Positions 47,277-51,341 of a DNA stretch of 64,000 nt are shown here, piece by piece. A program made the position numbers and the translations under genes. The stretch lies in sequence record MK327937.1. The stretch is one strand, 5' to 3'. Below the pieces are notes generated by a model. That model was not told where the DNA came from and did no database searches. It was given only the letters and a program-made list of their open reading frames with translations. Every line of letters begins with the position of its first letter. Positions within the stretch are counted from its first letter, which is position 1. Origin of the DNA: Escherichia phage vB_EcoM_G10400.

Positions 47277-47588
47277 TTACACCGCCATTTTTCCTTTCAA
47301 GACGCCGTGGGGCTGATAATCTTTGAGAACGAAATCTTTAGGCCTGAGTTTAAGAATGTATTCCAATTGTTCTTTAGTAGAAAGATAGCGGAATTTATAA
47401 GGCAATCCGCCTATTACCAGTTCACAAAGCTCTTTAGGTTCACGACGCAAAATTTCTTTACATTGTTCTACGTGATTCATATAGATATGAGTATTACCAC
47501 CGGAAAATATCAAATCTCCCGGAATAAGATTACACATCTTAGCTACAATATGAACTAACGTAGCATATGATGCAATATTAAATGGAAG
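47277..47588 (-). CDS. td: Thymidylate synthase, exon 2
   Basis: Encodes LPFNIASYATLVHIV...; intron ends ..CUGAACAUAAUG at 47589, as recalled for the T4 td intron. Confidence 0.9.
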   Translation of the reverse strand, partial: LPFNIASYATLVHIVAKMCNLIPGDLIFSGGNTHIYMNHVEQCKEILRREPKELCELVIGGLPYKFRYLSTKEQLEYILKLRPKDFVLKDYQPHGVLKGKMAV

Positions 47589-48604
47589 CATTATGTTCAG
47601 ATAAGGTCGTTAATCTTACCCCGGAATTATATCCAGCTGCATGTCACCATGCAGATCAGACTATATCTCCAACTTGTTAAAGCAAGTTGTCTATCGTTTC
47701 GAGTCACTTGACCCTACTCCCCAAAGGGATAGTCGTTAGGCATTTATGTAGAACCAATTCCATTTATCAGATTTTACACGATAAGTAACTAATCCAGACG
47801 AAATTTTAAAATGTCTAGTTGCATCTGCTGCACAATCAAAAATAACCCCATCACATGAAATCTTTTTAATATTACTAGGCTTTTTACCTTTCATCTTTTC
47901 TGATATTTTAGATTTAGTTATGTCTGAATGCTTATGATTAAAGAATGAATTATTTTCACCTGAACGATTTCTGCATTTACTACAAGTATAAGCAGAAGTT
48001 TGTATGCGAACACCGCACTTACAAAACTTATGGGTTTCTGGATTCCAACGCCCGTTTTTACTTCCGGGTTTACTGTAAAGAGCTTTCCGACCATCAGGTC
48101 CAAGTTTAAGCATCTTAGCTTTAACAGTTTCAGAACGTTTCTTAATAATTTCTTCTTTTAATGGATGCGTAGAACATGTATCACCAAACGTTGCATCAGC
48201 AATATTGTATCCATTAATTTTAGAATTAAGCTCTTTAATCCAAAAATTTTCTCGTTCAATAATCAAATCTTTCTCATATGGAATTTCTTCCAAAATAGAA
48301 CATTCAAACACATTACCATGTTTGTTAAAAGACCTCTGAAGCTTTATAGAAGAATGGCATCCTTTTTCTAAATCTTTAAAATGCCTCTTCCATCTCTTTT
48401 CAAAATCTTTAGCACTTCCTACATATACTTTATTGTTTAAAGTATTTTTAATCTGATAAATTCCGCTTTTCATAAATACCTCTTTAAATATAGAAGTATT
48501 TATTAAAGGGCAGTCCTACAATTTAGCACGGGATTGTCTACTAGAGAGGTTCCCCGTTTAGATAGATTACAAGTATAAGTCACCTTATACTCAGGCCTCA
48601 ATTA
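47589..48604 (-). mobile_element. Group I self-splicing intron in td (1016 nt) carrying I-TevI
   Basis: 5' end UAAUUGAGGCCUGAGUAUAAGGUGACUUAUAC.. follows exon 1 ..CUUGGGU; length 1016 nt equals the T4 td intron. Confidence 0.9.
47736..48473 (-). CDS. I-TevI: Intron-encoded GIY-YIG homing endonuclease I-TevI
   Basis: 245-aa ORF with N-terminal GIY-YIG motif (SGIYQIKNTLNNKVYVGSA) inside td intron. Confidence 0.93.
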   Translation of the reverse strand: MKSGIYQIKNTLNNKVYVGSAKDFEKRWKRHFKDLEKGCHSSIKLQRSFNKHGNVFECSILEEIPYEKDLIIERENFWIKELNSKINGYNIADATFGDTCSTHPLKEEIIKKRSETVKAKMLKLGPDGRKALYSKPGSKNGRWNPETHKFCKCGVRIQTSAYTCSKCRNRSGENNSFFNHKHSDITKSKISEKMKGKKPSNIKKISCDGVIFDCAADATRHFKISSGLVTYRVKSDKWNWFYINA

Positions 48605-49153
48605 ACCCAAGAAAACATCTACTGATCGTTGATACCACTGCAAATCCAAATAGCCATTACGCACATTAAACTGATAGAACATATGACAAGGCGGTAATGC
48701 CATTTGCTTAAGTTCTGCCGGATTCCATGCTGAAACAATTTGACGCCTATCATTTGGCAGTTTTTTAATACGATCAATAACTTCTATAATTTGGTCTACA
48801 CCGCCAAAATCACGCCATTGTTTTCCATAAATTGGACCAAGTTCACCGCTATGGTATCCTAAATCTTTTGCTTGATTTTCGTAATTTTCATCCCAGACTG
48901 TTTTGCCTTGAATTAATGAATTATGTTGAATTAATCGCAAATCATTTACGTTAGTACTTCCTGATAAGAACCACAATAACTCAGAAATACATGCATTCCA
49001 GGCGAGCTTCTTAGTTGTTACTGCAGGAAAACCTTTAGTTAAATCCCAGCGTAATTTAGTACCGAACAAAGCAATTGTTCCTGTGCCCGTTCGGTCATCA
49101 GTTTCATAACCATTTTCAAAAATGTCTTTAATTAAATCTTGGTATTGTTTCAT
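48605..49153 (-). CDS. td: Thymidylate synthase, exon 1
   Basis: 183 codons ending ..YQRSVDVFLG; exon 1 plus exon 2 gives 286 aa. Confidence 0.9.
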
Positions 49154-49198
49154 TTAGTACCTTATATAAATTATAATACATTTTATGAAGCTAAATAA

Positions 49199-49558
49199 TC
49201 AATACGGTTTAGCATCAAATTTTCTCTCAATTTCAGGCGTGAAATATAATTCTTTACCGCGTTTGGAAAAGCGACCAATAATATGATAATTATTCTCATC
49301 AAACGTGATATTACCAATATCCATAGCTTTCAACCAAATATCGATATTTCTATCCAGCTTTATGTCAAAATTCCAATACGGAGAACTATTACCGAAAATA
49401 CTGCAAGCGGATTCAGTGAAACAACTGCTATAAATCTTGTCTTTAGGAACTACTAATTGATAGACACCTTTAATAAACTGAGGACCCTGCCACTTTGGCT
49501 GTTTCGCGTCTTCTTCTAATAGAATAGGGTAATAATTAAAATTCATATTTTCCGCCAC
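49199..49558 (-). CDS. Hypothetical protein between td and frd
   Basis: 119-aa ORF (GTG 49558 or ATG 49546) with no recognised motif. Confidence 0.5.
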   Translation of the reverse strand: MAENMNFNYYPILLEEDAKQPKWQGPQFIKGVYQLVVPKDKIYSSCFTESACSIFGNSSPYWNFDIKLDRNIDIWLKAMDIGNITFDENNYHIIGRFSKRGKELYFTPEIERKFDAKPY

Positions 49559-49566
49559 GTGTTATT

Positions 49567-50393
<827 letters not shown>

Positions 50394-50404
50394 ATTATCT
50401 CCTA

Positions 50405-50737
50405 TTAAAAAGGATCAGGAATATATCCGCTAGCTTTAATCATTTTAATTAACGTTAGCATTCCTTTATTAACCGCTCGTGAGATTTCATCAAAAACTTC
50501 ATCACTAAAAAGTTCTAACACACCCTTCTGAACTTTTAATTTACAGCCAACAATTTCGTCATCGCCTATAGTAAATTCATTACCACCAATTCCTCCGAAA
50601 AACTTAATTACACCAGTTAACTGTCTTCCACGAGAATATGGGTCGTGTGATAAATTAATATGAGTCACCCCGGGTACAGTTTTAAATTGGCAGCGAATGT
50701 TTACTTGGGAAATTCCAGTTACATGAATATCAGACAT
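50405..50737 (-). CDS. Hypothetical protein (frd.2 position)
   Basis: 110-aa ORF. Confidence 0.55.
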   Translation of the reverse strand: MSDIHVTGISQVNIRCQFKTVPGVTHINLSHDPYSRGRQLTGVIKFFGGIGGNEFTIGDDEIVGCKLKVQKGVLELFSDEVFDEISRAVNKGMLTLIKMIKASGYIPDPF

Positions 50738-51047: not shown

Positions 51048-51341
51048 TTATTTTTGAATTTTATCGAGCCACTTACCAAGCTTAATCATTTCTTTAGTAG
51101 CCTTTTCCATACTTCTGAACTTAACCAATAGAGGATAGGTATCGACACCCATAACTAAACTGGTTACAAGACTGTGTTCACCCACAAGCCATAACGAATA
51201 CGTTTGAATATCGAGCCCGTAATTTCTGTCTTTGTGGACCCGTACACCTATCACTTCAAATTTCTCACTAGCTTTTTCTACCGCATCCAGGAAATCATCT
51301 TTAGTCATATTAGGCCTTAAAAGTTTTTCGCAAAAGTTCAA
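51048..51341 (-). CDS. Hypothetical protein
   Basis: 97-aa ORF; start may be the internal ATG (MTKDDF..). Confidence 0.5.
   Translation of the reverse strand: MNFCEKLLRPNMTKDDFLDAVEKASEKFEVIGVRVHKDRNYGLDIQTYSLWLVGEHSLVTSLVMGVDTYPLLVKFRSMEKATKEMIKLGKWLDKIQK

Follow-up and report, generated by a model that had tools for sequence, protein, structure and literature searches.

The frd-td junction of Escherichia phage vB_EcoM_G10400 (GenBank accession number MK327937.1) carries an open reading frame (ORF), referred to here as X1, which conservation and substitution patterns indicate is a genuine protein-coding gene under strong purifying selection. X1 is not a new discovery: it is an accessory gene that already has annotations in several hundred GenBank records and an entry in PHROGs. 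It is one of many conserved, ordinary T4-type ORFs, with a sequence identical to GenBank entries. The explanation that best accounts for the data as a whole, in which X1 is a real gene, a member of a module at the frd-td junction, and a binding protein, was given a probability of about 0.45. Its parts differ in strength, and the identity and evolution of X1 as a module gene are very probably correct.

Gene order and start codon of X1

The window analyzed here is the whole 64,000-nucleotide stretch from this phage. On its minus strand, frd is followed by X1, td exon 1, the td group I intron with I-TevI, and td exon 2 (Table 1). The 360-bp ORF that had been predicted between frd and td was confirmed. 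Its predicted spacing of 45 nt to td was exact, but the 9 to 21 nt given for the gap to frd was one base off, as the frd TGA is separated from X1 by 8 nt (from GTG 49558) or 20 nt (from ATG 49546). The ATG at 49546 is probably the start of X1, and it is favored because it is the one used in GenBank annotations, in phage SF, and in metagenomic contig L010. In a codon-by-codon alignment, however, the GTG at 49558 falls on the ATG with which P0002, a 119-aa homolog from contig L011, begins, so that a start at this GTG is also possible. The nucleotide composition of X1 is like that of its surroundings, and a 601-bp stretch spanning the gene shares 100% identity with Escherichia phages ES21 and ES19.

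TABLE 1 Features at and around the frd-td junction in the window
Feature	Position	Strand	Evidence or remark
X1 CDS (115 aa plus TGA stop), RB32ORF229c/phrog_1928	49199..49546	-	Start as used in GenBank
X1, longer form (119 aa), in-frame GTG start at 49558	49199..49558	-	Alternative start
frd, dihydrofolate reductase (193 aa)	49567..50148	-	98% identity to T4 Frd; Pfam DHFR_1, E = 6.8e-19
td exon 1, start at 49153, through to first in-frame stop within group I intron	48602..49153	-	Thymidylat_synt, E = 2.8e-64
I-TevI, td intron ORF	47736-48473		
td exon 2	~47277-47591		
Upstream spacer (20 nt), frd TGA to X1 ATG	49547..49566	-	Weak GGCGGA Shine-Dalgarno-like stretch inside
Downstream spacer (45 nt), X1 stop to td ATG	49154..49198	-	AAGG 6 nt 5' of td ATG
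ATGAAATAACAC, includes frd TGA stop	49559..49570	-	10/12 match to td start ATGAAACAATAC (49142-49153)

The longest ORF at frd comprises 202 aa from an ATG at 50175 (49567-50175, minus strand), and the start equivalent to that of T4 Frd, the ATG at 50148, overlaps the stop of an upstream 81-aa ORF in an ATGA-type junction. The 45-nt spacer downstream of X1 contains a motif of the MotA-box type, GCTTCA-N12-TAATTT (49168-49191, minus strand), with ATTTA before it; from its resemblance to middle promoters, it can be regarded as a putative promoter of this class. The pattern GCTTYA-N11-13-TANNNT was found 20 times in the window, against an expectation of 6.6 +/- 2.5, and 13 of the 20 were on the minus strand. 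A spacer of 45 nt was found specifically in X1-type Tequatroviruses; the spacer of Mosigvirus SF is 30 nt shorter and is devoid of the middle-promoter-like motif.

Distribution and annotation of the X1 family

To the phrog_1928 profile, the window ORF was matched with an E value of 9.3e-36 (residues 8 to 115 on profile positions 2 to 125 of 126), and it shared 97% identity with cluster P0001. X1 is thus the same gene, with no difference, as RB32ORF229c/phrog_1928 of RB32, RB14, RB51, T2, T6, HP3, AR1, and other phages. Using the 601-bp junction as a query, matches were obtained in 518 phage records, 358 of which covered at least 80% of it. A tblastn search with the X1 protein identified homologs in 580 phage records. 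These comprised 362 that were at least 90% identical, including T2, T6, RB14, RB32, RB51, AR1, and HP3, and 218 that were less than 60% identical, all of which belong to other genera. In approximately 360 Tequatrovirus records, X1 occupies the same frd-td position with 95 to 100% identity. Two of the records with Tequatrovirus-like sequences, PV654520.1 ("Pseudomonas phage vB_PSGBLB0006") and OL741432.1 ("Proteus phage Isf-Pm2"), have host labels that look doubtful, as both are 96 to 99% identical to Tequatrovirus at the locus.

X1 is generally labeled "hypothetical protein" (RB32ORF229c in RB14 and RB51). In the records of the BASEL phages it is a "putative homing endonuclease," and other GenBank entries name it "putative glucose-1-phosphate adenylyltransferase" or "putative dihydrofolate reductase"; none of these three functional labels was supported in this analysis. 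As the BASEL paper indicates, comparative presence and absence was the source of such endonuclease labels. A literature search found no mention of the X1 ORF.

Only 23 family proteins were recovered when 1.84 billion representatives were searched exhaustively with HMMER. All except two of them stand alone, with lengths of 95 to 119 aa, and every named protein among the matches came from a T4-like phage. As judged from these searches, the X1 family has so far been found in T4-like phages only. Neither the rest of the window nor T4 yielded a paralog of X1. Four genera, represented by Jiaodavirus KPV15, Kanagawavirus PEi26, Winklervirus CHI14, and Kagamiyamavirus EcS1, have a homolog with 27 to 45% identity in their frd-td slot. 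The slot is also filled by a family member in Marfavirus R3_1, in Mosigvirus SF, and in five metagenomic contigs (L010, L011, L017, L020, and L022). The stop and start codons of these homologs usually overlap those of their neighbors. Thirteen genomic contexts were examined in all, and in 12 of them the family member lay between frd and td.

P0024, which has all of the family motifs, lies outside the frd-td slot (L019, 1248-1577; ENA ERZ27260015 contig k141_230232). Its neighbors are a TM2/zinc-ribbon gene and an RlaP nucleotidyltransferase-like gene, and regB and a ValRS-modifier gene are found within a few kilobases of it, in a T4-like phage.

The original prediction had described X1 as an insertion inside a conserved operon. 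This description proved misleading, as no fewer than six other Tevenvirinae genera, and several metagenomic lineages, have a family member between frd and td, and within Tequatrovirus X1 is the majority state, with the approximately 360 records set against some 20 to 25 with empty junctions. In the synteny comparison across T4-like genomes that had been proposed as a check, the junction of T4 does differ, and X1 is common in the same slot elsewhere. At the level of the family, these comparisons suggest that the insertion interpretation is largely reversed.

A three-gene module between frd and td

In most of the frd-td slots outside Tequatrovirus, X1 is followed by a second ORF of 113 to 124 aa, X2, which is paralogous to X1 (hhalign probability of 98.9%, E = 3e-17; HMM E values of 1e-12 to 1e-19). 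A third gene, S, encodes 68 or 69 aa, lies just before td in L010 and R3_1, and is unrelated to X1. The complete X1-X2-S arrangement was identified in Marfavirus R3_1 and in one metagenomic lineage (L010). The window and the approximately 360 Tequatrovirus records have X1 only, while approximately 137 Tequatrovirus records, including SP21535 and ACG-C40, have S only; the S of these S-only phages shares 81% identity with that of L010. The junction is empty in T4, its laboratory derivatives, RB55, and SG1, and the count of 20 to 25 records of this type was estimated by subtraction and from an evenly sampled record list. These arrangements suggest that the frd-td slot of the Tevenvirinae is a variable, decaying three-gene module, of which individual lineages retain three, two, one, or none of the genes. 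No relics of X2 or S were found in the two spacers flanking X1 using blastn-short.

Copies of S were located at L005 2631-2837, L003 2709-2837, L010 5670-5879, and L024 2448-2654. In Tequatrovirus junctions S is joined to its neighbors by ATGA and TAATG overlaps on either side. Its annotation is inconsistent, ranging from hypothetical to "flagellar biosynthesis protein" and "DUF4858," and in ACG-C40 it is annotated as just 42 aa. S had no match in Pfam at an E value of 0.1 or below.

Loss from T4 or insertion into Tequatrovirus

The original prediction that frd and td overlap in T4 was borne out by the reference record, in which td ends at 145112 and frd starts at 145109, giving a 4-nt ATGA overlap. 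The absence of a T4 counterpart of X1 likewise held: when the whole T4 genome was searched in six frames with the family HMM, the best E value was above 0.4, compared with 4.5e-40 for the window ORF. Upstream of frd, the interval from gene 32 in the window contains the 81-aa ORF (50148-50393), a DUF7247 gene (50405-50737; 110 aa, E = 1.6e-43), and an 86-aa ORF (51048-51308), all on the minus strand, and tblastn found no counterpart of any of the three anywhere in T4. DUF7247 occupies the same place in distant T4-like lineages, after frd.1/DUF5417. With X1 the majority state and these three further ORFs also absent, T4 is a reduced outlier in the gene 32-td interval.

The X1 family is widespread, deeply diverged, and faithful to one locus. 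Because of this, and because the full X1-X2-S set occurs in two independent lineages, an old module with differential loss is favored. On this comparative basis, X1 was probably lost in the T4 lineage; its re-insertion in an ancestral Tequatrovirus is possible but doubtful. Clean vertical inheritance is not claimed, since the region is mosaic and the correlation between X1 and Frd identities is weak (Spearman 0.35, Mantel p = 0.02). As an illustration of the comparison with the metagenomic lineage L010, the identity to the window is 63% for X1 and 48% for Frd. Co-divergence was considered as proof of vertical descent and was rejected, given the weakness of this correlation and a Spearman value of only 0.19 for Frd against Td.

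Lateral transfer of X1 is clear in one case. The frd-td junction is empty in most Mosigviruses, and a few, such as SF and JQD51, carry an X1 that shares 90% nucleotide identity with that of Tequatrovirus, compared with 63% for the adjoining frd; the td gene is native. It follows that SF gained X1 laterally. In Mosigvirus, X1 was placed exactly at the ATGA overlap, and in SF the X1 ATG overlaps the frd TGA with no upstream spacer.

X1 of Tequatrovirus has flanking spacers, and the junctions elsewhere are tight. At the left junction of the window, ATGAAATAACAC differs from the td start ATGAAACAATAC by, among others, a C-to-T change that makes a two-codon mini-ORF, ATG AAA TAA. Judged from this similarity, ATGAAATAACAC may be a decayed duplicate of the 5' end of td left by an insertion, or it may be a re-initiation signal. 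It contains one arm of a 9-nt direct repeat, TAAATGAAA, that flanks X1; equally, a deletion between the TAAATGAAA repeats would yield exactly the T4 junction.

A further boundary was seen at td. The window and phage FriedrichMiescher share 97% nucleotide identity in frd and 99% in X1 but only 83% in td exon 1 (48602-49153 against the intronless td at L001 3547-4098). A sharp mosaic boundary at this point is expected, as the homing site of I-TevI is nearby.

Selection on X1 and predicted structure of its product

A dN/dS ratio of 0.046 was calculated between X1 of the window and that of SF (27 synonymous and 8 nonsynonymous differences), and of 0.097 between the copies of CHI14 and EcS1; the length and motifs of the protein are retained across genera. 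Together with the full-length match to phrog_1928 and the 580 records, these ratios place X1 far beyond a chance ORF. A nonfunctional chance reading frame, or a pseudogene decaying in a spacer, could be suspected from the weak ribosome-binding site, the ambiguous start codon, and the ability of T4 to live without the gene. Set against these are the dN/dS values of 0.05 to 0.10, the homologs of the same length and motifs at 27 to 45% identity in other genera, and the confident prediction of a compact fold. The probability of such an origin is negligible, and the conservation data effectively refute it.

As the original prediction had stated, X1 contains no recognizable motif: searches of Pfam, NCBIfam, PADLOC, and PDB sequences with the single sequence and with 4- and 24-sequence profiles gave no match. 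Across the 24-sequence alignment, Q16, W19, G27, G91, K95, and G97 are invariant, and L9, Y29, N79, R92, F93, and F102 are nearly so. The family can be recognized by the motifs LLExDxKQKKW, HGIY, GN, and IIGRFxKxGxxxxF. In the same alignment, neither Asp, Glu, nor His occupies an invariant position, and Cys and His are not conserved. The family is mildly basic, with a median pI of 8.6. An initial model based on a 4-sequence alignment was too poor to use (pLDDT of 57) and was replaced by an AlphaFold2 model from a 15-sequence alignment, which had a pLDDT of 82 and a pTM of 0.77. This model comprises strands at residues 6 to 12, 27 to 34, and 62 to 64, a helix at 68 to 76, and strands at 80 to 82, 86 to 96, and 99 to 104. 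No significant structural neighbor of the pLDDT 82 model was found, known OB folds included.

OB-fold domains, such as those of SSB, RPA, Teb1, S1, and cold-shock proteins, dominate the weak structural matches of X1, although none is significant, and the order of their secondary-structure elements is similar to that predicted for X1. The conserved aromatic and basic residues and the mildly basic pI of the family are also like those of OB-fold proteins that bind single-stranded nucleic acids.

In its size and setting X1 resembles the other small ORFs of the early/middle cluster, frd.1/DUF5417, frd.2, frd.3, DUF7247, nrdA.1/DUF4326, and nrdA.2/DUF5496. These are of the same kind, with 70 to 130 aa, and like X1 they are packed between core enzymes, conserved in the Tevenvirinae, and dispensable. 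X1 differs from them in having no Pfam family and in being absent from T4. No relationship was detected when X1 was compared with DUF7247, FRD2, and the 81-aa ORF using hhalign (probabilities below 1%).

Possible functions of X1

X1 is predicted to be nonenzymatic. Its features, among them the lack of catalytic motifs, point to binding rather than catalysis, by a protein presumably produced together with the enzymes of DNA-precursor synthesis, and X1 may, tentatively, be a small beta-barrel binding protein. The product would be a compact, mildly basic, beta-rich protein with one helix, in which the predicted order of elements (b1-b2-b3-helix-b4-b5) resembles that of an OB-like barrel. Lying in the early/middle nucleotide-precursor cluster and oriented like frd and td, X1 is presumably cotranscribed with them, and in most genera it would be translationally coupled to them through the overlapping stop and start codons. 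It would act by stoichiometric binding, with the aromatic and basic invariant patch contacting single-stranded nucleic acid or a nucleotide-like ligand, and where X2 is present the X1-X2 pair could be the binding unit. Binding would take place during the phase of DNA-precursor synthesis and replication, and the gene is dispensable in standard hosts. Binding as the mode of action and the nature of the ligand are the tentative parts of this proposal.

The original prediction had proposed an accessory or antidefense gene. The word accessory is apt in the sense of dispensable, as X1 is polymorphic for presence and absence among phages. A role in host takeover or antidefense, in which X1 would bind and neutralize a host factor such as a defense that depletes nucleotides or targets DNA, and would owe its place beside frd and td to history rather than to function, is rather unlikely. 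It would fit the occurrence of X1-type, S-type, and empty alleles within one genus, the tandem paralog X2, the lateral move of X1 into Mosigvirus SF, and the family member elsewhere in a T4-like genome. It would also fit a small protein with an orphan fold and no enzymatic motif that evolves faster than its neighbors (27 to 42% identity, compared with 44 to 54% for Frd and 77 to 85% for Td). These arguments do not discriminate, however, as most uncharacterized small T4-type ORFs share the same properties. X1 has no homology to any characterized protein, the search of PADLOC, which holds defense proteins only, was empty, no mention of the ORF was found in the literature, and the gene has been kept at one locus over many genera. 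The position itself is the main attraction of a different proposal, that X1, with X2, is a noncatalytic scaffold or regulator that bridges dihydrofolate reductase (DHFR) and thymidylate synthase (TS) or ties both into the dNTP-synthesizing complex. A family member lies between the two genes in all but one of the contexts examined, and it overlaps the frd stop in most genera and the td start in some, which implies coupled and therefore roughly equimolar translation. In the window, X1 has the orientation of frd and td but is set apart from them by its 20- and 45-nt spacers. A partnership with these enzymes is nevertheless unlikely: functional frd and td genes occur in the absence of X1 in T4, in most Mosigviruses, and in the approximately 137 Tequatroviruses of the S type, P0024 sits elsewhere, and the co-divergence of X1 with Frd is weak. 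Moreover, small ORFs in T4-type genomes routinely have functions unrelated to those of their neighbors. An extension of both ideas, as unlikely as the partnership, would make X1 and X2 a new small-barrel fold family of T4-like phages that forms a heterodimeric adaptor on the thymidylate cycle, either bridging DHFR and TS or shielding the dNTP supply from nucleotide-targeting host defenses. In its bridging version, such an adaptor would be a noncovalent counterpart of the fused DHFR-TS of protozoa.

The label used in the BASEL records raises the question of a free-standing homing endonuclease, or the remnant of one, that spread by cutting empty frd-td junctions. X1 shares several features with the seg and mob endonuclease genes, namely, a position between conserved genes, variable presence in close relatives, and mobility between phages; its alleles have sharp boundaries, SF gained it laterally, and elements of this type are abundant in the region, I-TevI in td being one. 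It is unlike seg and mob genes in being much smaller, in having no nuclease or DNA-binding domain, in its long residence at one locus, and in being under purifying selection. A GIY-YIG, HNH, LAGLIDADG, His-Cys, or other nuclease domain was found in none of the 24 family members (E <= 1), and there was no invariant Asp, Glu, or His, no conserved Cys, and no detectable DNA-binding module. At 95 to 119 aa, the X1 proteins fall short of the approximately 140 to 260 aa of the intact free-standing (seg and mob) and intron-encoded endonucleases of T4, and the fold matches no nuclease. Deep divergence at a single locus and strong purifying selection also depart from the invasion and decay through which such genes usually cycle. 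With motifs, size, fold, and selection all against it, an endonuclease origin is highly improbable and was rejected. The reading of X1 as a module gene encoding a binding protein is the one retained here.

Significance

X1 is somewhat more tractable than most T4-type ORFs, because it combines a confidently predicted orphan fold with a paralog, purifying selection, and natural phages with and without the gene. For genetics, X1-plus (T2 and T6) and X1-minus (T4) phages already exist. Should the X1-X2 adaptor reading be true, the polymorphism of X1-type, S-type, and empty junctions represented among T2, T6, and T4 would provide ready-made isogenic tests. Were X1 found to bind nucleic acid or the enzymes of the thymidylate cycle, this would be a small addition to the nucleotide-metabolism machinery of these phages and would overturn nothing. 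The main value of the analysis lies in a correction, namely, that the reference genome T4 is a reduced outlier at the frd-td junction. For this reason, an ORF that is "extra" relative to T4 is not to be taken as an insertion or a novelty without a genus-wide comparison.
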